In this document: positions 469 to 55,774 of the stretch, in pieces | Numbering within the stretch: the stretch's first letter is position 1 | Layout: each line of letters starts with the position of its first letter | Source: a phage | DNA: 64,000 bases | Assembly (NCBI GenBank): GCA_018865545.1 | Contig: GCA_018865545.1_3633.1 | Reading direction: 5' to 3' (one strand) | Program-made: the position numbers and the translations under genes | The notes under the pieces: model-generated | What the model saw: the letters and a program-made list of their open reading frames with translations, nothing else | Told to the model about the DNA's origin: nothing | The model's database searches: none

Positions 469-1888
469 CTAAATTTACAGCCCTTCCGAAAGGTGGTACA
501 AATTTATTATTTCCGCGACCACAAATAACCCAAAGAATATCCCATTTGCGTCCCCAATCTTTTTTCTTGTGTCTTAAATCCTCTATATATCCGTCTGTAA
601 AAATAATAACGTCTTTTGCATCAAAAATGTTATTTTCAATATACTCAAAAGCCGATGCTGCAAGTGTCCCACCCGTATAATTTACTTTATAATCAAGCAT
701 TTCCTTGATATTATCATGTGTATAAACTTTAACCTCTCCGACTTTTGTTGACCAACAGAACAATGTCACGCGAAAAACGCGGTAAAGCTGGCATAATCCT
801 ACAATTTCTCCGAAGATTTTGTCTAAATTCGCCTTCGAAATTGATCCAGACACATCGAAGCCAATAACTATATCTATAGTATTATCGTACTCCCTTCCTG
901 GTAAAACAATATGCTGTTTTTTTCCAATAGCTCCATACTGCCGAAGTGCCTGTGTCATAGATCCAGACCTACGAGATGGTTTCCTGTATGTCAGGTTAGA
1001 CTTGATCCGAGAAAGCATACGCTGTTTGATTATCTGAAGATAATTTATGTGTGGTTTACGCATTCTTGCAATAACGTCACGCACCTCTTTCGGCCCCTCT
1101 CCTCCCGCTGCTTCCATCGCGGCCTCGATAAGACCAGATGACCACGACATATTATCATCTTTTTCTGCTTGGCTTGGCACTGGGTGAGGATCTTCATATC
1201 CTAGGATATTGCTGTCTTGATCATAATCACCTATGTGTGTGCCCATAGGTTTACCAACAGACGGTTGGCCTTTGTTTATGAGACTGTAAATCTCCTCCGC
1301 TGTCTTACCGTGGAAATTAAAATCACAGTAGCAATAAGCCATAAACCCAAACTCTTTACCTTTGTCAAAGGTTGTCTGTTTCCCCATTGGGAAGAAACAC
1401 ATCTGGCTGGAGCGTGGCCCAAGATCAGACACCACTAAATCCGTGTTAATATAATGATCTGCTGCTGTGTTGTAGGTTTTAGAATCAAATGCTTTTCCAC
1501 GGGATAAATGATCGTTAGTAATATGACGTAGCTCGTGCATAAGAATAACAACAACCTCTTTGGGTGTTTTCTTACGATAAAATACGTTCACATAGTCTTT
1601 ATAGTCATCTTTTTCTTGTTGTGTCATTGTGGGGTGATTATCCACACGCTCAAAAACCTTCTTCTTCCTTTCTTCAGGCATACCCATAATAAACTCAGGG
1701 TTGAAGTAGAGGTTTTTGTGATCAGTCGCTGCTGTTGGCAACCATTTCCAGTTAGCAACTAAGGGTAGAGAACTTAACAAAGTCCCGTAAAATGGTCTGT
1801 ACTTTAAAAGAGCTATTCGTGCCGATTGGATAACTTTTACAGCATCCTTCTCTAACTTGGCAATCATTTCATATTCGTCTTTTTGCAT
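452..1888 (-). CDS. VWA-domain protein with N-terminal HExxH metallopeptidase-like domain (MoxR-partner type)
   Basis: HELRH motif; C-terminal MIDAS-like GFDVSGS and FTDG motifs of the von Willebrand A fold. Confidence 0.7.
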   Translation of the reverse strand: MQKDEYEMIAKLEKDAVKVIQSARIALLKYRPFYGTLLSSLPLVANWKWLPTAATDHKNLYFNPEFIMGMPEERKKKVFERVDNHPTMTQQEKDDYKDYVNVFYRKKTPKEVVVILMHELRHITNDHLSRGKAFDSKTYNTAADHYINTDLVVSDLGPRSSQMCFFPMGKQTTFDKGKEFGFMAYCYCDFNFHGKTAEEIYSLINKGQPSVGKPMGTHIGDYDQDSNILGYEDPHPVPSQAEKDDNMSWSSGLIEAAMEAAGGEGPKEVRDVIARMRKPHINYLQIIKQRMLSRIKSNLTYRKPSRRSGSMTQALRQYGAIGKKQHIVLPGREYDNTIDIVIGFDVSGSISKANLDKIFGEIVGLCQLYRVFRVTLFCWSTKVGEVKVYTHDNIKEMLDYKVNYTGGTLAASAFEYIENNIFDAKDVIIFTDGYIEDLRHKKKDWGRKWDILWVICGRGNNKFVPPFGRAVNLDEHAK

Positions 1889-1899
1889 AATTATGCTCC

Positions 1900-1932
1900 A
1901 TACAAAAATAGGCTATCTTTCGACAGCCTATT
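1900..1932 (-). terminator. rho-independent terminator
   Basis: 8-bp stem AATAGGCT/AGCCTATT with 10-nt loop, U-rich tract on minus strand; between stop of 1940..2203 and start of 452..1888. Confidence 0.45.
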
Positions 1933-1939
1933 ATACTTG

Positions 1940-2203
1940 TTATTTTTTACTTGTAAATAATTCTATGGTATCAAGCGGCATAAAATTATTACCGCCAGTT
2001 AATCTGGCTCCCCATACCGGAACTTGTCCTCCAGTTGGTTGGTGTGGGAACATAAATAATACTATAGCCTCTACAGAAGTTATAACGTTTCTGGCATTTT
2101 TATAACGAACCCTATCACCAACTTTAAAATTTGGTTTCTTTCCAGATTCAATCATCTGGGCTTCTTGATCGGTAGCTGGCCTTCCAAGAATCTCTTCAAA
2201 CAT
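1940..2203 (-). CDS. hypothetical protein
   Basis: 87-aa ORF in operon-like arrangement. Confidence 0.35.
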   Translation of the reverse strand: MFEEILGRPATDQEAQMIESGKKPNFKVGDRVRYKNARNVITSVEAIVLFMFPHQPTGGQVPVWGARLTGGNNFMPLDTIELFTSKK

Positions 2204-2204
2204 A

Positions 2205-2393
2205 TTATTTTACCTCTTTATTACCGACATTCCACCAACTTACAGCAGTAGGCTCACTCAGAGCCTGTGGCCCAGATGTTCCACATTTCTGGCAGTAAAT
2301 GTAGTGAAATATTGTTTGACCAGAGCGTGATTGTTTAAGCAGAAGTGCATCATTTTTACAAAACGGACACGGTTTTGGTAGAGAATCTTTCAT
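2205..2393 (-). CDS. Lar-like restriction-alleviation zinc-finger protein
   Basis: 62 aa; CPFC...CQKCG cysteine pairs and SWWN motif resembling the Lar family. Confidence 0.5.
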   Translation of the reverse strand: MKDSLPKPCPFCKNDALLLKQSRSGQTIFHYIYCQKCGTSGPQALSEPTAVSWWNVGNKEVK

Positions 2394-3208
2394 TAAACCA
2401 CCTTGTTCAGCATAGCTGTAATTTTTGGTAAACTCATTTTCGTATTGATCATGAGTTGTGTTAATGCTGTTTCCATCTTTTCAGAAACAATAATGAAGTT
2501 GTCTTTTGCAAACCCAAGATCTAAATCCATAATGAGAATAGGTTTTGGTGTTTTTGTTAACTTCTCCCCTGTTAGAGAACAGGTGTTTCTTGAATATTTA
2601 GCCTTAAATTGTGCATAAGTAACGCTAACATTCATACCTGCTTCTGCAAATGTTTTACAGTAGTTTGCGTATGCAAGTGCAATTTCAACATCGTCAGGAA
2701 GAGATTTTTCTTTCATCTCTTCAACCTGCTCATCAATAATTACGTTCTCTGTCTCTTTCATATCTGTTTCCGTAGGTATGTATTTAAGTTTTAACTTTTC
2801 CAAGTGATCCTTTGACATATTTAACATCATTCCTTGGACGATATCCATGTCGAGTGGATCTACAATCGTTAGAGCTTTCTTTTTGTCTACAAGAAAATCT
2901 TTTAACTGGTTTGCTCTCTTACCGACTACACAAACGTTTCCACGAACATACCCTTTTTTGTCATCTATTCGTTCAACAGACGGGTAGAGGGGGTCATTAG
3001 GTGTCGCAGAAAAAGGTAGGCCTGTGTAATCACAAACACCTTTCCCAAGTAATCCGTTGCCCATCATAAACCAGTCATCTTCTGTCAGATTGAACTCTAT
3101 ACCTCTCGCTTTGGTATTCCTCTTTTTGAAAAAGAGTCGTGTTTTGAGATACCTTATCTCTTTGGTTGTAAACTCTTCATTCCAGTTCATACAGAATATC
3201 TCTGTCAC
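2393..3208 (-). CDS. hypothetical protein with degenerate HNH-like motif
   Basis: 271 aa; PSVERIDDKKGYVRGNV segment resembles nuclease-associated DNA-binding motifs; acidic C-terminal half. Confidence 0.35.
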   Translation of the reverse strand: MTEIFCMNWNEEFTTKEIRYLKTRLFFKKRNTKARGIEFNLTEDDWFMMGNGLLGKGVCDYTGLPFSATPNDPLYPSVERIDDKKGYVRGNVCVVGKRANQLKDFLVDKKKALTIVDPLDMDIVQGMMLNMSKDHLEKLKLKYIPTETDMKETENVIIDEQVEEMKEKSLPDDVEIALAYANYCKTFAEAGMNVSVTYAQFKAKYSRNTCSLTGEKLTKTPKPILIMDLDLGFAKDNFIIVSEKMETALTQLMINTKMSLPKITAMLNKVV

Positions 3209-3254
3209 TTAACTTGTGTTCGTAGTATCTCACAAATTTCCAGTTTGTCAAGTA

Positions 3255-3283
3255 TTGACTTTGATTTTTTAGTTATGTACATT
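3255..3283 (+). promoter_or_regulatory. candidate sigma70-type promoter
   Basis: TTGACT, 17-nt spacer, TACATT; in the divergent intergenic region upstream of ATG 3320. Confidence 0.25.
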
Positions 3284-3319
3284 CCTCATAACCAATGAAA
3301 ATATTTTTGGAGTTTGACC

Positions 3320-4174
3320 ATGGCAAAGATACCTGACGAAAACATTTCTTCTTATTTTGATGACTACCTGCATCACACAAAATCTATGAAAATAAATTTT
3401 AATGTATTCCGTGAAGCCATTATAAGGGAAGTTGAAAGTCGCCACCATGAACCAAACCCTTTAATAGAACTCATAAAACATGCTGTGCTTATGTGTTTTG
3501 ATACTCTGGATAGGAAATGTTACTGGAAATATTATGTTGAAGCTGACGAGCGTGCTTACATGGCAAGCGTAAACTTAACGCATGAGTTTTCAAGCTATGA
3601 TATTACTTGTGGGCAAATAACAATTTCTTTCCAAGGCTTTAATTATGGAATGTGTTTAGCAGGATCGTTGTCTGCACGAACACAAAAATTCCTGTCTGTT
3701 TTGTCCCAATTGGGGCATTGGGATGGTAATATGTTTTCCATAAAGGCTTCCTATGTCAGAACAAACCCAGATATTCTCCACATCAGGGAGATTAACTCCA
3801 GTTTTGGATCCTTTTCTCTGGCGGGTTGTTATGGAATGTTTTACCAAACAAAGATGTATGATTATGCAGGTCATGCTGCAATTAAGATAGCCAACACGCC
3901 AAACGTAGAGAATAAGAAATCGCACTACTACTTGGTGTGTAATACCCAAGAAGTAATGTACCATCGTGTTGTAGAAAAGGAGCTAAAAGAGCTTATCTTG
4001 GGGGAGATCCCTACCCAAGAGGAACGCTCAATGATAGAAATGGCTGGGTACAAAGGAGAATTTTTTCTTGATTCTCTTGTAGATTTTGATAATATTGGTA
4101 TAAAACCCTTTAACATGCAAGAGGCATATGAATGGCACAATCGAAGTCTGTCCCCAGTAACATGCAAGATTTAA
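3320..4174 (+). CDS. hypothetical protein
   Basis: ORF from ATG 3320 (track start 3314 is TTG); no motif recognised. Confidence 0.45.
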   Translation: MAKIPDENISSYFDDYLHHTKSMKINFNVFREAIIREVESRHHEPNPLIELIKHAVLMCFDTLDRKCYWKYYVEADERAYMASVNLTHEFSSYDITCGQITISFQGFNYGMCLAGSLSARTQKFLSVLSQLGHWDGNMFSIKASYVRTNPDILHIREINSSFGSFSLAGCYGMFYQTKMYDYAGHAAIKIANTPNVENKKSHYYLVCNTQEVMYHRVVEKELKELILGEIPTQEERSMIEMAGYKGEFFLDSLVDFDNIGIKPFNMQEAYEWHNRSLSPVTCKI

Positions 4175-4629
4175 GACCCCATCAGGAGTTGGCTTTAGCT
4201 ATAAAATTGGCCTCTGAAAACCATCTTAAGCAAAAAGATCGTGGTGGAATGCCCTACATTCTTCACCCATTAAGGGTGATGCATGAACTTGGTAATGATG
4301 ACTTACAGCTAATGGCAATCGGTGTCCTTCACGATATCCTTGAGGATACTAAAGTTACAGCTTACGATTTGGTAATGTTAGGGTTCACTAACAGAGTAAA
4401 AGATGCAGTTCTTCTGCTAACAAAGAAACAGAGCCTGACTGAAGAAGAGTACATTGAGGGCATCTGTACTAATTATGATGCGATTCGTGTAAAACTCGCT
4501 GATTTAAAAGACAATATGGACGTAAAACGTCTTAAATCCTTATCAGATAAGGATTTGGCAAGGTTAAAGAAATACCATGAAATGCATCTTAAACTTGCTG
4601 ATGCAAGAAAAAGATTCGAGGGGAAATAA
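4132..4629 (+). CDS. HD-domain hydrolase, small alarmone hydrolase (Rel/SpoT HD)-like
   Basis: HPLRV...LMAIGVLHDILEDT matches the HD signature of (p)ppGpp hydrolase domains; 165 aa. Confidence 0.55.
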   Translation: MAQSKSVPSNMQDLRPHQELALAIKLASENHLKQKDRGGMPYILHPLRVMHELGNDDLQLMAIGVLHDILEDTKVTAYDLVMLGFTNRVKDAVLLLTKKQSLTEEEYIEGICTNYDAIRVKLADLKDNMDVKRLKSLSDKDLARLKKYHEMHLKLADARKRFEGK

Positions 4630-4844
4630 TGAATGTTTATCAACCACATCCATTTGATCCAAAGAACAAAGCGGTGATCCACAGAGAATGGGTGGAGAGA
4701 AGGAAAACAGACTGTCCTGTTAAAGGTACAGAGGATTACAATAGGTTTTACATAGCAAAGTTTGTTGAGTATACTTTTATTAACAAAAAGGGTAAGAAAG
4801 TGCATGTTGCAGAATACCCTTTATGGATAAAATGGGAGGATTAG
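4629..4844 (+). CDS. hypothetical protein
   Basis: 71-aa ORF tightly packed with neighbours. Confidence 0.4.
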   Translation: MNVYQPHPFDPKNKAVIHREWVERRKTDCPVKGTEDYNRFYIAKFVEYTFINKKGKKVHVAEYPLWIKWED

Positions 4845-20284: not shown

Positions 20285-20478
20285 GAGAAAAAGAGGATAC
20301 GTGTAAAATATGATGAGTTAGCTATTCGTGTTGCCAAGGGGCTTGAGGGGTACATTCCCGCCAAGAGAAGCCCTTTGGCAAAGAAACATAAATCAAAAAT
20401 AGGTAGTTTTCCACATAATCTATAACCAACTAAGAGATGGGCGACGATACAGTCAAGCCCATCTTGAATAGGAGGAGT

Positions 20479-22515
20479 ATGAAAGGGCTTTTTGTCGGAG
20501 ATAACGAAGCTGACGGATTATTAGAAGAGGCAACTAAATATCACTGCACACTTTTTAAAGAATATGCTGTAAATAACTGGGTGTTGTTTCTCGATCCTGC
20601 TCACAAGGAATACCAGAGTGCAGTTAATTTTGCACGCAGCAAAGAAGGTGTTAATTTACGTATCCTTTCTTATGATGATTTTTACTCTTGGTTGCAGACC
20701 GAGCCAAGAGGGATAGCAATACATAACCTGTTCGGCTATGATTTACGTCTGTGGAAAAAACTTTCTGGGATTGAATATGACATGTTCAAAGACCCAAAAT
20801 GTATGGGGACGATAGGTAATAAACAGGTAAATCTTTACGACACTCTTTCAATGAGTCGTGTTCTTTACCCAGATCGCCCATTGCCTAATGGCTGCCCAGA
20901 TTCTGTATTGAACCCTGTAACAGGAAAACGTGACAGGGTTGGGCCACACGGCTTATTGGCATGGGGTTATCGTGTAGCAAACAAGAAAGTGCAGATTGAT
21001 GATTGGCGTAATCAGCCATTGTGGGAATATGTAAACCGTGTGTGGGAAGACGTTATCATTAACGAACTTGTGTGGAAAGCTCTTATTGATGAGTCAAATG
21101 GTACGCGATGGCCTGATGACAAGCAGTTTATGTACACTGATAAACCTCACGGGATGCACCAGATTAATTGGAAAAATGCATTACGTAGGAGAATGCTCAC
21201 AGACTATTTGATGATAGAGCAAGAAATACAAGGCGTATACTTTAATCGGGAGGAGGCAGAAAAATTAAGAGATCGCATAGATAAGATGATGCGAGAAATT
21301 GAAGAAGAGGTAGAACCACTTCTTCCAAAAAAAGAGATGACGAAATCTCAACAACCAAAATTCCCAGCTAACCCTTTTGACACAGCGGGTAATATATCTC
21401 ATCATGGGTGGAATTGGTTGGAATATAAACTTGGCTATCCTGTTAACAGGGAAGCTCTGGAGTTTAAAGCTCCACCAAAAACAGCTTTTAAGAGTAATGG
21501 GGATGTAAGTGCAGCAGGGGAGAGATATTGCATCCAGAATGGCATTGAAGATCCGGCTTTATACGGTGATTTCATTCGTTCCCAGCGAACCAAAGAGAAC
21601 ACACTCGAACCTTTACCGCCAGATCTTCTAGAGAAGGCTAAAGAAGACCTTCGAAACAGAAAAATGCCAGATTTAATGGTTCCAATGAAAATCTCTAATC
21701 AAGATGATATTAAAAAATATTTGATCAAAGATGCTGGTTGGAAACCTACACTGTGGCGTGTAAAAGATGTTACTAAGGATCAATTTAAAAAGACTCGTGA
21801 AGATTCTGAAATTGATGTACTAGTTAAGAAGTACATAGAAGAGTTGGCAGAGTCTGAGTATAAATCTCTTATTCTTGACTACCTTAATGATTCAGATGAG
21901 AAATTCAACATTTCAGAGCGTAAGTTTGACCATCGCCATGCATCTGAAAGGGGTTATTCAGAGATATTTAAGAAATTTCGGCGTAAAGCACGCCAGTTAC
22001 CGACATCTCCTCAATTAAAAGATAATTTTGGGCATCTGTGTCCAAATTTGGAGAAAATTGATGTGCATATGGCAAAACAGATTGTTAAGTGGCTATCACT
22101 TCGTAACAGGCGATCTGTTTTAGACCCAATGGATGAGGATAAGACGGATACAGGGTTATTAAATCACCCTCGTTTAGACATTGACGGAAAACTTCCAGCA
22201 CGTTTTTCTGGAATCACTAACACGGGCAGGTGCAAGCATACTGTTTGCGCAAACATGCCCAAGCCTGATCCGAAGGTTTTGTTGGGAAAAGAAATGCGGG
22301 GTCTTTGGACAGTCCCTGAAGGCTACTACCTGATGGGTTGTGATGGATCTAACTTAGAAGGTATGATTGCAGCGGCAGGGGCTTTTGAGTTTGATGGTGG
22401 TGAGTATTTACGTATCATGATGGAAGAGGATGCCCATGAACGAAACGCAAGAGCATACACAATAGCAGCAGGAAAGGAGGTAACACGCTCTGGAGGAAAG
22501 GGGGTTACGTATGGT
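20479..22515 (+). CDS. family-A DNA polymerase, exon 1 (3'-5' exonuclease to start of motif B)
   Basis: start ATG 20479 after AGGAGG; Exo I-like FVGDNEADGL; motif A-like CDGSNLEGM; ends ...RSGGKGVTYG, the first half of motif B. Confidence 0.75.
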
Positions 22516-23249
22516 TAATGATAGCCCCCTTACAAAGTAATTTGTAAGGTGCACCCATTGAATTGCTGGGAAGTCTGACCGAGTTATGTCGAAGATAATC
22601 AGCAGGTAAGCGAATGCTTCCCTCTTACAAAAGGAGGGAGAATATGAGTACATTTTGTTGTATAATCTGCGGTGAACAATGTGTTAAAACTGGTAAAAAT
22701 CAAAAAGTATGTCTCTCTGAAGGTTGTAGAAGAGAATATTCAAAGATAAAAACCAGAGAATATAGACGCAGAAAGGCCGAAAGAGAAAATAGGCTTGACA
22801 GAGTTGGCATAGGAAAAGGTGGTGGGCAGCCTCGTGGGAAATTGTCCAAATTTTATAAAAATGGCATATCGATGTTTCGTAAGTTATCCCCTGTCATAAA
22901 GGAACAGAGAAGATACTGTAATAGATGTAATAAAGATCTTCTTTATGCAGGTAAGGATGAGTGGTGCGTTCATCATATTGACCATGATAGGACGAATAAC
23001 GAAATAAGTAATTTTGAATTACTTTGTAAAAAATGCCATCAAATAGAACATAAATGTTGGGAAGCATTCGAAACTTCAACGACTAGCCGAAAGGCGTAGG
23101 GCCAAGCGGTGAGGGAAACCTCCAGTCTTTCAGACTGCCGAAGCAGTGGGCATCCTGAAAAGGATGAAGATATAGTCTGATCTGCATAGAAATATGTAGC
23201 AGTTCCTAAGAGGACGGGCATGGTGTAGCGAGCCATGTTGAACAATATG
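22516..23249 (+). mobile_element. group I self-splicing intron (IA-like) in the DNA polymerase gene
   Basis: exon 1 ends in U, intron ends in G; P-like AATTGCTGGGAAG (22561-22573), Q-like AATCAGCAGG (22597-22606), R-like TTCAACGACTAG (23075-23086), S-like GAAGATATAGTCTG (23166-23179); several GNRA-capped hairpins; HNH ORF between Q and R. Confidence 0.75.
22644..23099 (+). CDS. intron-encoded HNH homing endonuclease
   Basis: N-terminal Cys-rich zinc-finger-like region; C-terminal CVHHIDHDRTNN...CKKCH HNH motif; start ATG 22644 after AAGGAGGGAG. Confidence 0.7.
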   Translation: MSTFCCIICGEQCVKTGKNQKVCLSEGCRREYSKIKTREYRRRKAERENRLDRVGIGKGGGQPRGKLSKFYKNGISMFRKLSPVIKEQRRYCNRCNKDLLYAGKDEWCVHHIDHDRTNNEISNFELLCKKCHQIEHKCWEAFETSTTSRKA

Positions 23250-23882
23250 ATCATGTATGGAGCACAAGCTCCTAAGATAGCCGCAATGCTGGGTATCCCC
23301 CTTAATAGAGCACAGGCTGTAATAGACGCATTCTGGGATAGTAACTTCGGGTTGAAAATGCGTAGAGAGTGGTTAGAAAAATTCTGGGAGGCAAATGGGA
23401 GACGCTATATTCCAGGCATGGACGGGCGTAAAATTTGGACTCGTTCTAAACATTCTCTGCTGAATGCTTACCAACAAAACGGTGGTGCTTCATTGTTTGA
23501 CCTCATGGGAGTCCTGTTCCATTGGGAATTGGTGAAACGGGGATGGTACGACCAAGGTGTCAGGAGGGTTATCTACTACCACGATGAGATACAGGTACAA
23601 GTACCGGAAAGATTTAAATCAATAACGGAGCATTCTAACTTAGAGGCTGCACAAAGCTATGTAGACATGATGCTTGAAAAAGGCCATCGTTTCGACGGGC
23701 ATTATGTGAAAGCAGGTAAAGTTATTGTTGAACCTGATGTGTATGGGAAATACAGGATACTGCATTGCCCAGTAGGAGAGCTTGCAACAAAATGTGTAGA
23801 AAAAGCATCTAAGATAATGGGACTTCCCGTTTTAATTACAGGAGAATATCTTTGTGGATACACATGGGCAGATTCCCACTGA
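23250..23882 (+). CDS. family-A DNA polymerase, exon 2 (rest of motif B, motif C)
   Basis: begins IMYGAQAPKIA, completing motif B (K..YG..YGA...KI) when joined to exon 1; YYHDEIQV matches motif C. Confidence 0.75.
   Translation: MMYGAQAPKIAAMLGIPLNRAQAVIDAFWDSNFGLKMRREWLEKFWEANGRRYIPGMDGRKIWTRSKHSLLNAYQQNGGASLFDLMGVLFHWELVKRGWYDQGVRRVIYYHDEIQVQVPERFKSITEHSNLEAAQSYVDMMLEKGHRFDGHYVKAGKVIVEPDVYGKYRILHCPVGELATKCVEKASKIMGLPVLITGEYLCGYTWADSH
23854..23870 (+). repeat. direct repeat, copy 1 (flanks freestanding HNH gene)
   Basis: GTGGATACACATGGGCA; 14 of 17 nt identical to copy 2 at 24410-24426. Confidence 0.4.
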
Positions 23883-24492
23883 TGAAGTAGAGGAAATTTG
23901 GAAGGATATCGTAGGGTATCCTGATTATCAAGTAAGTAATTATGGAAATGTAAGATCTTTTAAATCAGGAATGTGGAAATACTTAAAAACTAAAAGTGAA
24001 AATTTATCTCCACAATGCTATCCGAGCGTGTGCTTGTACAAAAGGGGTAAAGATTCAGGGAAAAGTTTTTCAGTCCATAGACTTGTAGCGGAGGCTTTTA
24101 AAGAGCCTCCTTCTCCAGAATTGCAGAAAGAATGTAGAAAAACTGTGCTAGGAGTTCCAATTATAAACCACATAGATGGTGACAGACATAATAATAGGGT
24201 TGAAAATCTTGAGTGGTGTACCTATAGCCATAACAATACAGTGGCTTATGGTATGGGGAGAATCCAAAAATTTGGTGATGATTATCATTTATCTGTTCTT
24301 ACAAAGGAGAAAGTTTTAGAGATTGTACGGCTTATTGATTGTGGGATAACACACAAAGCTATTGCGGAACTATTCGGAGTTTCCAGAAATACAATATCTT
24401 CTTTAAATAATGGATACTCATGGTCACATGTCACAGGAAGACCTAAGAAAGTCCAGAAAAGAAGATCAAAAACAGACCCTATATCAGAGTAA
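23854..24492 (+). CDS. freestanding HNH homing endonuclease (NUMOD4-like N-terminus, HNH, C-terminal HTH)
   Basis: EEIWKDIVGYPDYQVSNYGNVRS; HIDGDRHNNRVENLEW; HTH-like ITHKAIAELFGVSRNTIS; GTG start overlaps the polymerase 3' end. Confidence 0.65.
   Translation: MDTHGQIPTDEVEEIWKDIVGYPDYQVSNYGNVRSFKSGMWKYLKTKSENLSPQCYPSVCLYKRGKDSGKSFSVHRLVAEAFKEPPSPELQKECRKTVLGVPIINHIDGDRHNNRVENLEWCTYSHNNTVAYGMGRIQKFGDDYHLSVLTKEKVLEIVRLIDCGITHKAIAELFGVSRNTISSLNNGYSWSHVTGRPKKVQKRRSKTDPISE
24410..24426 (+). repeat. direct repeat, copy 2
   Basis: ATGGATACTCATGGTCA. Confidence 0.4.
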
Positions 24493-47074: not shown

Positions 47075-48195
47075 TTATTGAGGGACAGCAAGAATAAGAT
47101 TAATGTTATCCATATTAGCTGTCTCTATTTGCTGATCAATCATATTCCGTAATTCTCCAGCATCTATTTTAATTGTTATTTCACCACTGACAGGCTCGGT
47201 AGGAATAACCATAGGAGCTACAATTTGACCCGCAGTAGATCCGCCCGGCATCAAATTATGGGATTGAAGATAGTTGGCTTTATCCTGCATATGCCCAGCC
47301 CAAAGCGATGTCCACCAACTACTTAACATCCCTCCGGTAACAGCCATTAAGTCACCACCACCAAATGAATAAGCATTTCCAAGATCTTGTTTTTTAGCGT
47401 TCTTTTCACTATCGTTGGAATTTACGTAGTCGTATCCCATAAGGGCAGCAGCAACGTAGGGATTTCGTATAGACCACCCTAGCAGCTTACCAAAAACCCC
47501 ACTTCGTTTCCCACCACCTTTCCTATCCCACGGTCCATTACCACCGCTATTACCTCCCCCAGATTTTGGTACGTCCGGCCCACCAAAAATTTCTTTAAGA
47601 ATTTTTAATGTTCCCGTTATTCCAGCAATTTTAGCCAAGATTCTGAATACTCTAACCAAGGAAGCTGCGAAGAATAGAGCACCGAGACCCCAACCTACCC
47701 AGTTAGTCGCTTTTTGGAATGTCTCACTTTTCTTTATCCATTGTGGGATATACATGTTTAATTCTGCATTTATAAAAATGCAGACATTAGATATCGTATG
47801 TGCGATATCCATAAAGCCCTTTATGAATCCAGAAGTAAATTGTCCAACTTTCTCAGCTAACGGTCCTTTAGCATCCAACATGTGGGACAAATCATTAAAC
47901 GTCTTAGTTAATTCATCCCCAAATCCACTTTCAAATATCTTATTTTGAAAGTTCATCCATGTTTGTTGTAAACGCTGCATAGCAACACGGTTGCTTTGTT
48001 GTGCCTTGGTAAGTGCACCACCTTTTCTTGCGGCCTCGGCATAATACTTAGCGACCAAAGGAAGAATTTTTGAAGCCTTTAGCTCCCCATTCTTCATCAT
48101 ATCCATTAATTTTGCAATGTCTATAGATGAATCATTGAATGCTTCTTGTGTGGCTTTAAGGAATACATCAAGGGAACCAGGGATGCCCTCGGCTA
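47075..48195 (-). CDS. tail tape measure protein, C-terminal part (putative exon 2)
   Basis: frame is open upstream of the first ATG (48106) to 48196, directly abutting the structured intron core; Gly-rich segment; 5' limit uncertain by a few nt. Confidence 0.5.
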
Positions 48196-49014
48196 CTTAT
48201 TGTCCCCTCAGTTCGCTACACTGAGGCGGTGTGCTAAAACACCCGCCACATGTTTCCATGTGGAACAGACTATATCTTCCTCTGATTTTACAGAGGCCAA
48301 CCATTTCGGAGCGGCTTCGCCCCTACTCTCCTACACTCATCGGAGATAGTCGTTGAGCACATAACTTAAAGATTTTTTAATAAACGTCGCCAAGCATTTT
48401 TATGTTTTATCCTGTGGATAGTTGATCTTGTTACACCAAACTCATTCATTAAAGATGTTGTATCCTCAAAACGCCTGTGGTAAATCCTAATAACTTGATC
48501 TTCTGTTAATTTGCAATTAGGATTTCTTTTTCCATCTACGGAGTTTAGACCTTTTGAGAAAGCATGTTTTTGGTTCTGCGACCTAGTAACATACTCCAGA
48601 TTATCTTTGTGGTTGTTGGCCTTATTACCATCTTTATGGTTAACTTCCATTTTTGGATGTGGCGGTTCACCAATGAATGTTAATGCGACTATCCTGTGTA
48701 CAAGATACAATACACACTTTCCGTCTACCCTAAAGTAAACTCTTTTATATCCATTGTGTATTGTTTGCTCAGTTAGTTTCTTCCATGTACCTCTTTTTGT
48801 TGAAAAGATTGCACCATCTTCTCGACAAAAGTACCCGTTATGTCCAGGCACGGGTCTAATCTCTAAGTTACTTCGCTGCGGATTGTCCATTGTTACATCT
48901 CCAAACTTTTTACTATACCTGAGATAGTTATTCTCAGCCATTATTATGTTACCATAATAATTTAGTATTTGGTAGCTTTAGGAGTTCCCCGCAATTAGAT
49001 TGGTTTTACAACAG
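48196..49014 (-). mobile_element. group I intron (IA-like) with HNH ORF; minimum extent, 5' splice site unresolved
   Basis: minus-strand RNA carries R-like CAACGACUA (48347-48355), S-like GAAGAUAUAGUCUG (48266-48279), GNRA-capped P9-like hairpin, P-like AAUUGCGGGG (48987-48996); GC-rich stem-dense segment 48200-48360. Confidence 0.6.
48366..48941 (-). CDS. intron-encoded HNH homing endonuclease
   Basis: NUMOD4-like N-terminus; HNH motif EVNHKDGNKANNHKDNLEY; C-terminal HTH-like region. Confidence 0.7.
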   Translation of the reverse strand: MAENNYLRYSKKFGDVTMDNPQRSNLEIRPVPGHNGYFCREDGAIFSTKRGTWKKLTEQTIHNGYKRVYFRVDGKCVLYLVHRIVALTFIGEPPHPKMEVNHKDGNKANNHKDNLEYVTRSQNQKHAFSKGLNSVDGKRNPNCKLTEDQVIRIYHRRFEDTTSLMNEFGVTRSTIHRIKHKNAWRRLLKNL

Positions 49015-50325
49015 CTAGTATGTCAACTGTTGTTTTAATTCTTCAGCCATGATCTGACCTTTACCCATCATTTGTTGGATAGCGGTAATACCACGCTGGA
49101 ATTTTACAGGATCAACCTGAAGTGCAGTAGCATATTCTGAGAAACCTTTGAACAGTTCGTCATTTTGCGCCTTGCTCAAAACACCTTTGGCAGATATGGA
49201 CATTTGGGTATAACCTTGGGCGGCGGTTTTTAAATCCAAACCCAATCTGTAAGATTGCTCCCGAACAAACTGTATTCTTTTCGCTGCTTCTTCTGAGTCA
49301 TCAGAAACCATTAACATGGTAGCTTCCATGCCTTGAAAGAATTGTCCTGTTTTCACAACACTTGCGGCAGCATTAAAAGCTCCGTATGCAGCAGAAACAC
49401 TAATTAATGTGCTACGAAGGTTTTTCAATCCTTGATCAAGAGATAGTGTATTTGCCTTAGCTTTGCGGAGTCCTGTTTCCATTGCTGCCAATTCAGCACG
49501 GAAATTAGAAGCTCTCATAGTCTGGCTTTGCATAAATCTCTTTTCCAGATCATCATAACCTTTAATTTTAGACCTGAAATCATCACCATACTTAGCACGA
49601 AGTCTTACAGCAGCATTAGCAATTGTTGATTGTTTTGCAGCCTTTATCCTTTCTGCTCTTAACGCTTCTCTTTCTTTCTTCTTATTAGCATCTTTTTCTG
49701 CCTTAATCTCATCCGCTGTTTTTTCTTTCGGAATAGATTTATGATAGCGTTCCATAGCAGAGTTCTGGGCAGCCACAAGACTTGGATCGTGACGACTATT
49801 AGGATCCCCAACAATACCAGAGGCAGACCCTGAAGACTTTCTTGCTGCAAGTTCTTGCTGCAATCTTGCTTGACGGGCAGCAGATATTTCTGGATTTGTT
49901 CCATATCCAGAACCTGTTTTTTCCATCTGCTTCAACTTTGATTTTAATGCATTATATTCTTTTTGTTCTTCAGGTGTTCTTCTGTTTGTTAGTCTGGCTA
50001 CTGCTTGCTTTCTTCTCGCGCTCTCAACTTTGGCTATTTGTTCACGAGCACGAGCTTCCTTTTTTGCCATTGCAATAGCATGTGCCGTAGATTTTGCTTG
50101 CTCTGCACGTTCAGTTTGGTGTAATCTTTTAGCTACAAGACGAGCCTCTTGCGCAGAACGTTTATAAATTGCTGCCGGATTACTTTTATTAGAAGTGAAA
50201 GCTCTGTTAGTCTTTTCCCATTCCTTCTTCAGGGATTTTATAGCTTTCATTGCACGACCGTAACTGGTGCGATCTACAGACCACTCGACAGCATTTACGG
50301 TTTTAGTTACTATGATATTCGCCAT
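49015..50325 (-). CDS. tail tape measure protein, N-terminal part (putative exon 1)
   Basis: Ala/Lys/Glu/Arg-rich coiled-coil; directly downstream of the frameshifted chaperone pair; the last 20-30 codons may be intron-encoded. Confidence 0.5.
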   Translation of the reverse strand: MANIIVTKTVNAVEWSVDRTSYGRAMKAIKSLKKEWEKTNRAFTSNKSNPAAIYKRSAQEARLVAKRLHQTERAEQAKSTAHAIAMAKKEARAREQIAKVESARRKQAVARLTNRRTPEEQKEYNALKSKLKQMEKTGSGYGTNPEISAARQARLQQELAARKSSGSASGIVGDPNSRHDPSLVAAQNSAMERYHKSIPKEKTADEIKAEKDANKKKEREALRAERIKAAKQSTIANAAVRLRAKYGDDFRSKIKGYDDLEKRFMQSQTMRASNFRAELAAMETGLRKAKANTLSLDQGLKNLRSTLISVSAAYGAFNAAASVVKTGQFFQGMEATMLMVSDDSEEAAKRIQFVREQSYRLGLDLKTAAQGYTQMSISAKGVLSKAQNDELFKGFSEYATALQVDPVKFQRGITAIQQMMGKGQIMAEELKQQLTY

Positions 50326-55342: not shown

Positions 55343-55369
55343 AAACACAACAATTGCTATGGAGGATTT

Positions 55370-55774
55370 ATGAAAAATATTTTAAAAATTACAATTGGTC
55401 TGTGCGTCTGTGCTGTTATTGCAGCGGGAACTCTCCAATATGTGAAAAAGAACCCAGATATTAATGATTATAAATCTGTCGAGGCAAGTTGGTTGTCGCC
55501 AGAAGAAAAAGATGAGGCAATTAGCCGTATTGTACAATTATCTTGCGATAAGAGATTCAGAGAAGCATTTAAACCAGGCGTTATTGTTGTGTCATCAGGT
55601 TTCGAGGGTAGGATAGCAGAACAGGCGGAAGCATATCAATATTTTGATGATGTCGCAATTATCTCAGGAAAACAATCTTACACTGGAAAATACATCTGCA
55701 CTTTTTACAAAGATGGGCGGGAAGTGTATATTAATGCAAACTTGGATAAAGGAGTGCAAGGAATCCTAAAATAA
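55370..55774 (+). CDS. secreted/periplasmic protein (moron-like accessory gene)
   Basis: N-terminal signal peptide MKNILKITIGLCVCAVIAAGT; opposite strand to surrounding structural genes; own promoter and terminator. Confidence 0.55.
   Translation: MKNILKITIGLCVCAVIAAGTLQYVKKNPDINDYKSVEASWLSPEEKDEAISRIVQLSCDKRFREAFKPGVIVVSSGFEGRIAEQAEAYQYFDDVAIISGKQSYTGKYICTFYKDGREVYINANLDKGVQGILK

Follow-up and report, generated by a model that had tools for sequence, protein, structure and literature searches.

The gene for the tail tape-measure protein (TMP) is frequently interrupted in phages. In phage ICP1 it has four exons as well as three introns, the splicing of which has been shown by RNA-seq and RT-PCR (Barth et al. 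2023, PMC10448857), and the middle intron carries the HNH-3 gene (gp80) (PMC10448857). Introns are also known in the capsid and tail genes of the cluster J mycobacteriophages. In phage CB7 of the subfamily Vequintavirinae, HNH-containing introns in terL, pol, nrdA, and nrdB were found by RT-PCR to splice (PMC7344957), and the papers on Basilisk-like phage and on phage KASIA contain nothing on TMP introns. In this report, we describe an insert on the minus strand of a 64,000-nucleotide stretch of phage DNA (contig GCA_018865545.1_3633.1; the whole stretch is called the window below), which is very likely a mobile group I (IA2-like) intron that encodes an HNH endonuclease of the I-HmuI type and interrupts the TMP gene of an Avunavirus-like coliphage. 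The element is real, but as a mobile element it is of an ordinary kind, TMP introns having already been shown to splice in ICP1. An earlier inspection of the letters of the window (the sequence-only reading) had called introns in tail structural genes uncommon, which is overstated in view of the frequent interruption of the TMP gene and the three verified introns of ICP1.

The DNA polymerase intron of the Bacillus phage SPO1 is likewise a phage group I intron that encodes a 174-amino-acid (aa) HNH endonuclease, I-HmuI, whereas its host gene is a DNA polymerase gene rather than a TMP gene and the sequence identity is low. I-HmuI reportedly acts by nicking and initiates homing through gene conversion, as Landthaler and colleagues are said to have found in 2004. 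The td, nrdB, and nrdD introns of T4 (subgroup IA2) share with the window intron the P7.1/P7.2 insertions and the conserved J6/7-P7 and J8/7-P7′ segments, and in td and nrdB the open reading frame (ORF) is also looped out of P6a. The record of a T4-like phage (H65) matches the 3′ core of the window intron at 73%. The T4 introns reside in genes of nucleotide metabolism and are associated with GIY-YIG or other endonucleases. The introns of CB7 and those in terL of phage TH18 belong to the same phage subfamily as the window intron, but none of them is found in a TMP gene.

The ICP1 introns are similar in more respects. The TMP of ICP1 is rV5-like, and in both phages the group I introns interrupt the conserved motif Q(V/I)MAEELKxQLxE..P of an rV5-type TMP gene. 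An HNH_3 endonuclease is situated in the P6 loop, gp80 is 32% identical to the window protein over its full length, and the P4-P5a/b/c-P6 layout is similar, including a P5b capped by GGUAAC. The two systems differ in host and in phage genus, and the ORF of ICP1 lies wholly within P6a, whereas that of the window starts in P5′.

The interrupted tape-measure gene and its predicted splice sites

The window belongs to an Avunavirus-like myophage of the Vequintavirinae. In its tail and baseplate region the identity is 97% to Escherichia phage Av-05 and about 95% to phages 24-2-1, 18-1-2, and TH18; no identical phage was found among the records of the annotated phage collection. The TMP gene is located after the tube and chaperone genes and appears as three consecutive minus-strand ORFs of 436 aa (50325..49015), 191 aa (the maximal ORF, 48941..48366), and 343 aa (48106..47075). 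The first ORF matches the Pfam family TMP_3 (43.4 bits against a cut-off of 41), the second matches HNH_3, and no family was matched by the third. The annotation given to homologues of the split gene is tail length tape measure protein. In Av-05 and 24-2-1 there is a single uninterrupted TMP gene of 793–794 codons (793 aa in Av-05), and the gene is uninterrupted at this site in all of the 60 best tblastn phage records. The match to Av-05 and 24-2-1 covers about 2535 bases of their genes and 3401 bases of the window, and therefore an insert of roughly 830–870 bases is present in the window. By sequence comparison, the host gene of the predicted intron is the TMP gene.

The splice sites were placed by group I rules and by comparison with the intron-less alleles, which gave a single solution. 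All features of the element are on the minus strand. Exon 1 (49026..50325; 1300 nucleotides, nt) was delimited from the ORF list, the TMP_3 match, and the alignment to the TMPs of Av-05 and 24-2-1, and it ends with AAA CAA CAG U. The predicted intron (48196..49025; 830 nt) is defined by the partial Rfam matches, the intron-less relatives, covariation, and RNA folds. Exon 2 (47075..48195; 1121 nt including the stop codon) starts with UAGCCGAGGGC and is read from 48195 as UA GCC GAG GGC. Sequence comparison by itself leaves a junction ambiguity of 1 nt because the intron and exon 2 both begin with U. The requirements for a terminal G and for a U·G pair in P1 resolve this ambiguity, with the predicted 5′ splice site at U49026 and the 3′ end of the intron at G48196, a residue that is kept in six of six intron copies.

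The joined exons form a coding sequence of 2421 nt and 806 aa that is colinear with the TMPs of Av-05 and 24-2-1, with no insertion or deletion at the junction. The junction codons CAG U/UA GCC GAG encode Q L A E, and the window sequence EELKQQL/AEGIPGSL is aligned to EELKSQLSEGIPGSL of the intron-less TMPs; over a longer span, GQIMAEELKQQL followed by AEGIPGSLDVF is aligned to GQIMAEELKSQLSEGIPGSLNVF. Across the junction the predicted spliced RNA reads ...AAACAACAGT joined to TAGCCGAGGG, and the encoded junction peptide is QQLAEGIPGSLDVFLK. Ligation of the two exons would restore the TMP reading frame. The sequence-only reading had proposed a group I intron in the TMP gene at 48196–49110. The in-frame fusion and the compensatory changes described below bear out the intron, and the 48196 end stands, whereas the other end lies 85 nt too far, since the intron ends at 49025 and 49026..49110 belongs to exon 1.

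The same segment could in principle be a non-splicing insertion of an endonuclease gene, with the TMP made as two polypeptides that assemble after translation, as in the genes-in-pieces arrangement of nrdA and mobE in phage Aeh1. Without splicing, exon 1 runs on to QLTY and then meets an in-frame stop codon (49015..49017), the 343-aa ORF begins at its own ATG (48106), and one HNH insertion of CB7 did not splice (PMC7344957). However, this ATG is preceded in exon 2 by 30 conserved TMP codons, which would be lost; no Shine-Dalgarno sequence was found ahead of it, and the start of the downstream ORF varies by lineage (343, 347, or 370 aa). As had been remarked earlier, the exon-2 frame is open for these 30 codons upstream of ATG 48106, and it closes at TAA 48199..48197, within the last bases of the intron. 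The complete ribozyme core that is conserved and covarying also argues against two polypeptides, as does the role of the TMP as a single molecular ruler. We regard an assembly of two polypeptides as very unlikely and favor a spliced intron.

Ribozyme core and homologous copies

A scan of the whole window with Rfam at the gathering threshold gave no match. The gathering cut-off of the group I model RF00028 is 50 bits, and two half-matches were visible only in E-value mode. They correspond to the 3′ half (48461..48246; 32.3 bits, E of 4e-6 locally and 2e-4 for the whole window) and to the P3-P4-P5-P4′-P6 part (48999..48835; 19.8 bits), the match being split by the long extension of P5 and by the 520-nt ORF within P6a. 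The Rfam check on the minus strand that the sequence-only reading had proposed thus detects both halves, each below the gathering score. The computational folding that it had also proposed recovers the core helices: unconstrained folds of the 3′ and 5′ halves have z scores of −4.2 and −3.6, respectively, and the minimum free energy folds independently recover P1, P4, P5, P5b/c, and P7–P9.2. The R-like, S-like, and P-like motifs, the two hairpins, the GAAA-capped hairpin, and the terminal G that had been pointed out before were all located on the minus strand.

All of the conserved core helices could be placed, including the P3-P8 and P4-P6 domains and the P7 pseudoknot that contains the guanosine-binding site. 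In P1 (49009..49032) the exon sequence CAACAGU (49032..49026) is paired with the guide GCUGUUG (49015..49009), and the U·G pair at the splice site (U49026·G49015) is invariant in six of six copies. P10 is formed by 3 base pairs (bp) between CUA (49018..49016) and UAG of exon 2 (48195..48193). Across the six copies, six of the seven P1 pairs (all except the outermost) and all three P10 pairs are invariant. The 5′ core (48877..49003), assigned from the Rfam alignment, contains P3 (CCAAUC 49003..48998 with GGUUGG 48302..48297), J3/4-P4 (48996..48987; AAUUGCGGGG), P4 (UGCGGG 48993..48988 with UCCGCA 48882..48877), and P5 (UCC/GGA), which is extended by P5a (48967..48963 with 48915..48911), a P5b hairpin with a GUAA loop (48961..48940), and a P5c hairpin (48937..48919). 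P6/P6a (48357..48876) is closed by GC(GAA)GUAAC (48876..48867) and GUUAU(GU)GC (48365..48357); this pairing is invariant and fits the Rfam P6 consensus.

The 3′ core (48196..48356) begins with J6/7-P7 (about 48355..48347; CAACGACUA, written UCAACGACUA within the 3′ core) and P7 (GACUA/UAGUC, 48351..48347 with 48272..48268). These are followed by P7.1 (48346..48327), P7.2 (48323..48308), P8 (48296..48279), J8/7-P7′ (48279..48266; GAAGAUAUAGUCUG), P9 with a GAAA loop (48263..48246), P9.1 (48245..48227), and P9.2 (48226..48206). J6/7-P7 and J8/7-P7′ agree with the group I consensus in the Rfam alignment. The traits of subgroup IA2 that were found are P7.1/P7.2 between P7 and P3′ and the extension by P9.1/P9.2.

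Five additional metagenomic phage contigs, which form two other lineages, carry the same intron at this position of the TMP gene, with 73–78% identity to the window copy. The exact 174-aa HNH protein is present in two assembled read sets (Logan contigs L003 and L004) in the same TMP context, HNH proteins with 81% and 75% identity lie between the N- and C-terminal parts of the TMP on other metagenomic contigs, and three further viral contigs were recovered by a search for the junction pattern. The six introns represent three lineages that are 73–78% identical to each other. In all six copies exon 1 ends with CAACAGU, exon 2 starts with UAGC, and the fusion is in frame. Contigs L003 and L004 both end (at about 3566) within a 32-nt stretch that is common to TMP and terL introns, probably an assembly break at a repeat.

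Base pairs were counted in an alignment of the six introns, with slid partners and 500 shuffles as controls. Standard pairs occupy 96.8% of the cells, compared with 29–39% for slid partners and a mean of 89.2% for the shuffles. Two-sided (compensatory) changes were found at 29 of 94 pairs, compared with 2–4 for slid partners and a shuffled mean of 11.0, and none of the 500 shuffles reached the observed pairing values. The compensatory changes are located in P5a, P5b, and P5c of the 5′ core and in P7.1, P7.2, P8, P9, and P9.2 of the 3′ core. There is no two-sided change in P3–P7, P9.1, or P10; P9.1 is invariant, and P3 has a single one-sided change. An invariant core with a covarying periphery is what a working ribozyme would be expected to show, and from its sequence the intron is very probably well-formed and active.

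A GC-rich intergenic spacer that resembles group I motifs by chance would be consistent with the absence of an Rfam match at the gathering score. Against this stand the E values of the 3′ half, the exact in-frame restoration of a conserved protein, the 29 pairs with compensatory changes, and the near-identical 3′ modules in the annotated split terL gene of TH18. Colinearity of the protein and covariation have in effect already refuted a chance resemblance, to which we assign a negligible probability.

The HNH endonuclease and probable intron mobility

The ORF at 48366–48941 noted in the sequence-only reading is present and is an HNH gene (Pfam HNH_3, 50 bits against a cut-off of 24.8, E of 2e-13; PHROG 59, HNH endonuclease, E of 5e-45). 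The start at 48941 that had been given for it has to be revised, however, since the conserved start is ATG 48890. One lineage lacks the upstream ATG at 48941, and a second has it out of frame, whereas an intact 174-codon ORF that begins with MDNPQRSNLEIR at AUG 48890 is found in six of six copies. GGAG is located 8 nt upstream of this AUG, and the gene calls on the metagenomic contigs are also 174 aa. No exact copy of the 191-aa form was found in the searches that returned the 174-aa form, and this helped to fix the start codon. The ORF thus probably starts at ATG 48890, and the coding sequence (48366..48890) stops just before P6a′.

The protein is a full-length homologue of I-HmuI (PDB 1U3E, 174 aa), to which it was aligned over residues 10–164 versus 2–164 (E of 3e-13). 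The catalytic His of the NHKDG motif, the N of NN/NL, and the N of QN are aligned with their counterparts in I-HmuI. The dN/dS between the window and the L008 copy is 0.065, and by this measure the endonuclease is under purifying selection. Most of the ORF is contained in the P6a loop, AUG 48890 is inside P5′, and the first nine codons run through P5′-J5/4-P4′-P6-P6a. The GGAG upstream of the start is able to pair with CUCC of P5. Because the start codon region overlaps the P5/P4 core, folding of the core and translation of the endonuclease may compete. A scan for promoters and terminators returned nothing above shuffled expectation that bears on expression of the endonuclease.

In the mechanism that we propose, the late pre-mRNA would fold into the ribozyme, the guide GCUGUUG would hold U49026 in P1, and exogenous guanosine would attack after this residue. 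The freed exon 1 would then attack after G48196 while the 3-bp P10 aligns exon 2, and the product would be an mRNA for the single 806-aa TMP. The ORF in the P6a loop would yield the 174-aa endonuclease of the I-HmuI type. By analogy with I-HmuI, this enzyme would nick the TMP gene of co-infecting relatives that lack the intron, close to the site of insertion, and during recombinational repair the intron would be copied into the cut genome along with a little of the flanking exon.

The distribution of the intron among close relatives is polymorphic. Av-05, 24-2-1, TH18, and others are without it at 94–97% nucleotide identity, and no full-length copy was found in annotated phages, where only core fragments common to the introns of other phages were matched. 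The exons next to the junction carry a patch of clustered substitutions relative to the intron-less relatives (positions −16 to +27 around the junction, 48169..49042). Compared with Av-05 and 24-2-1 there are 14 mismatches in these 44 nt and none at −57 to −17 or +28 to +106; the rest of the gene is 2–3% diverged. Over the 19 nt upstream of the junction, the window matches the exon flank of the distant L005 lineage without a difference. The patch looks like a co-conversion tract, in which flanking exon sequence would have been imported together with the intron.

It is also conceivable that the intron splices and is immobile, with an HNH protein that is inactive or unable to cut diverged sites, and that it is inherited by vertical descent only. 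Of 44 positions at the sites of Av-05 and 24-2-1, 14 do not agree with the fused exons, Asn replaces the Asp that adjoins the catalytic His in I-HmuI, and the annotated phage records hold no carrier of the window intron. On the other hand, the low dN/dS and the ORFs of 174 codons, intact in three lineages, speak for a functional protein, the NHKDG motif is also present in the homologue from ICP1, and phage HNH homing enzymes accept many changes in their targets (PMC3943268). Recent homing would be in keeping with both the patchy distribution in close relatives and the exon patch. Immobility is therefore improbable in our view, although less so than a two-polypeptide TMP, and a mobile intron is preferred.

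Several points weigh against this assignment of a mobile group I intron. The better Rfam score is below the gathering cut-off (32.3 versus 50 bits). The three RF00028 matches of the ICP1 TMP gene are 77.9, 38.9, and 28.9 bits, so that two of its introns also fall under 50 bits although the transcript is spliced, and a sub-threshold score is therefore also seen in a verified case. P2 is not present, the spacer between P1 and P3 being only UAAAA, and the label given to the intron is therefore IA2-like, P7.1/P7.2 being present. The td intron of T4, in comparison, has a P2. P5 has just 3 bp in the homologous register, and an alternative CUCC/GGAG pairing exists. UCC/GGA beside CAA of J5/4 is the pairing preferred in the Rfam register, but both pairings are invariant, and CUCC/GGAG may still be the true P5. 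Because the six copies come from only three independent lineages, there are fewer independent events than the cell counts suggest. The Asn that precedes the catalytic His makes nuclease activity less than certain, and selection for P1/P10 pairing or for resistance to the nuclease, rather than co-conversion, could partly explain the substitution patch. Finally, for the window phage we infer splicing catalysis, nuclease activity with its target, and homing from sequence.

Insertion points, shared modules, and other homing elements

The exons of the ICP1 TMP gene (L013, 9192..12995, minus strand) were reconstructed from sequence as E1 ...GTCATGGCT, E2 GAAGAACT, E3 AAAAGGTCAACTGGGT, and E4 GAAGTAATGCCC..., which when joined read MAEELKGQLGEVMP. 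By our reading, the ICP1 introns would be inserted at −19, −11, and +5 nt relative to the window site, and the window intron would occupy a fourth, distinct insertion point. An ICP1 intron at exactly the window site was considered and rejected on the basis of these positions. Micro-exons of 8 and 16 nt seem to remain between the ICP1 introns, which are no more than 24 nt apart in MAEELKGQLGE, on either side of the position used by the window intron.

The window intron shares some modules with introns of other genes. An ORF-less terL intron of TH18 (RF00028 score of 34.5 bits) has P7-P7.1 and the segment P7′-P9-P9.1-P9.2 through to the 3′ end in nearly the same sequence as the window TMP intron, whereas P3-P6, P7.2, and P8 differ. 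Since some modules are common to the two introns and others are not, the window intron is a mosaic. The long P7.2 of the TMP introns of L005, L009, and L010 (alignment A1, columns 716–758) resembles P7.2 of the polymerase intron of the window (23100..23140, plus strand). These sequence comparisons suggest that peripheral modules are swapped between introns of different genes.

Two introns, of which one is ORF-less and the other contains an HNH gene, divide terL of TH18 and 24-2-1 into three parts. In TH18 (L012) terL extends over 1072..4785, with the match to the window intron at 2501..2657; the window itself ends before the expected position of terL. In the Pseudomonas phage PhiPA3 (H61/H62), a segment of a split RNA polymerase beta-subunit gene (55345..55454) is 78% identical to P9-P9.2 of the window intron.

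A wider proposal can be formulated, which we advance tentatively and consider rather doubtful as a whole. It holds that the TMP introns may exchange structural modules with resident introns of other genes in the same genome (P7.1 and P9-P9.2 with terL, P7.2 with DNA polymerase); that the MAEELKxQLxE stretch (24 nt) of rV5-type TMP genes may be a homing hotspot for multiple related IA2-like introns, with at least four insertion points in Vibrio and enterobacterial phages; and that ribozyme folding and endonuclease translation may form a mutually exclusive switch.

Another group I intron (about 22519..23234) splits the family-A DNA polymerase gene of the window (20437..23882, plus strand) and is presumably what was counted as the first intron in the sequence-only reading. 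It contains an ORF of the zinc-finger HNH type (22614..23099, plus strand) and matches RF00028 with 46.8 bits at 22996..23199. The HNH protein of the TMP intron differs from the one in the polymerase intron, as had been stated earlier. A close relationship between the two introns of the window was rejected, since only a 38-nt stretch is common to both. A free-standing endonuclease ORF of 212 aa with NUMOD4, HNH_3, and HTH domains (23854..24492, plus strand) overlaps polymerase exon 2 at its 3′ end, and with this gene beside the intron the polymerase locus is a small cluster of homing endonuclease genes.

Gene callers report the TMP as two proteins, one of 436 aa and a "hypothetical" one of 343 aa, plus an HNH gene, and the same split is found in the metagenomic contigs. 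The tail length predicted from the length of the TMP would be wrong unless the exons are joined, and introns of this kind probably also fragment metagenomic phage contigs. Our knowledge of how group I introns work is unchanged by this element. With it, the recently recognized habit of homing introns to target the most conserved motif of the TMP gains an enterobacterial example, and the element points to module exchange between introns. The additions are modest: a proposed hotspot in common with ICP1, the exchange of modules between introns, and an endonuclease start that overlaps the ribozyme core. An intron-encoded nicking endonuclease of PhiPA3 cripples a co-infecting competitor phage (PMC11620839), and by analogy the TMP-targeting enzyme of an Av-05-like phage could likewise sway mixed infections or phage cocktails.

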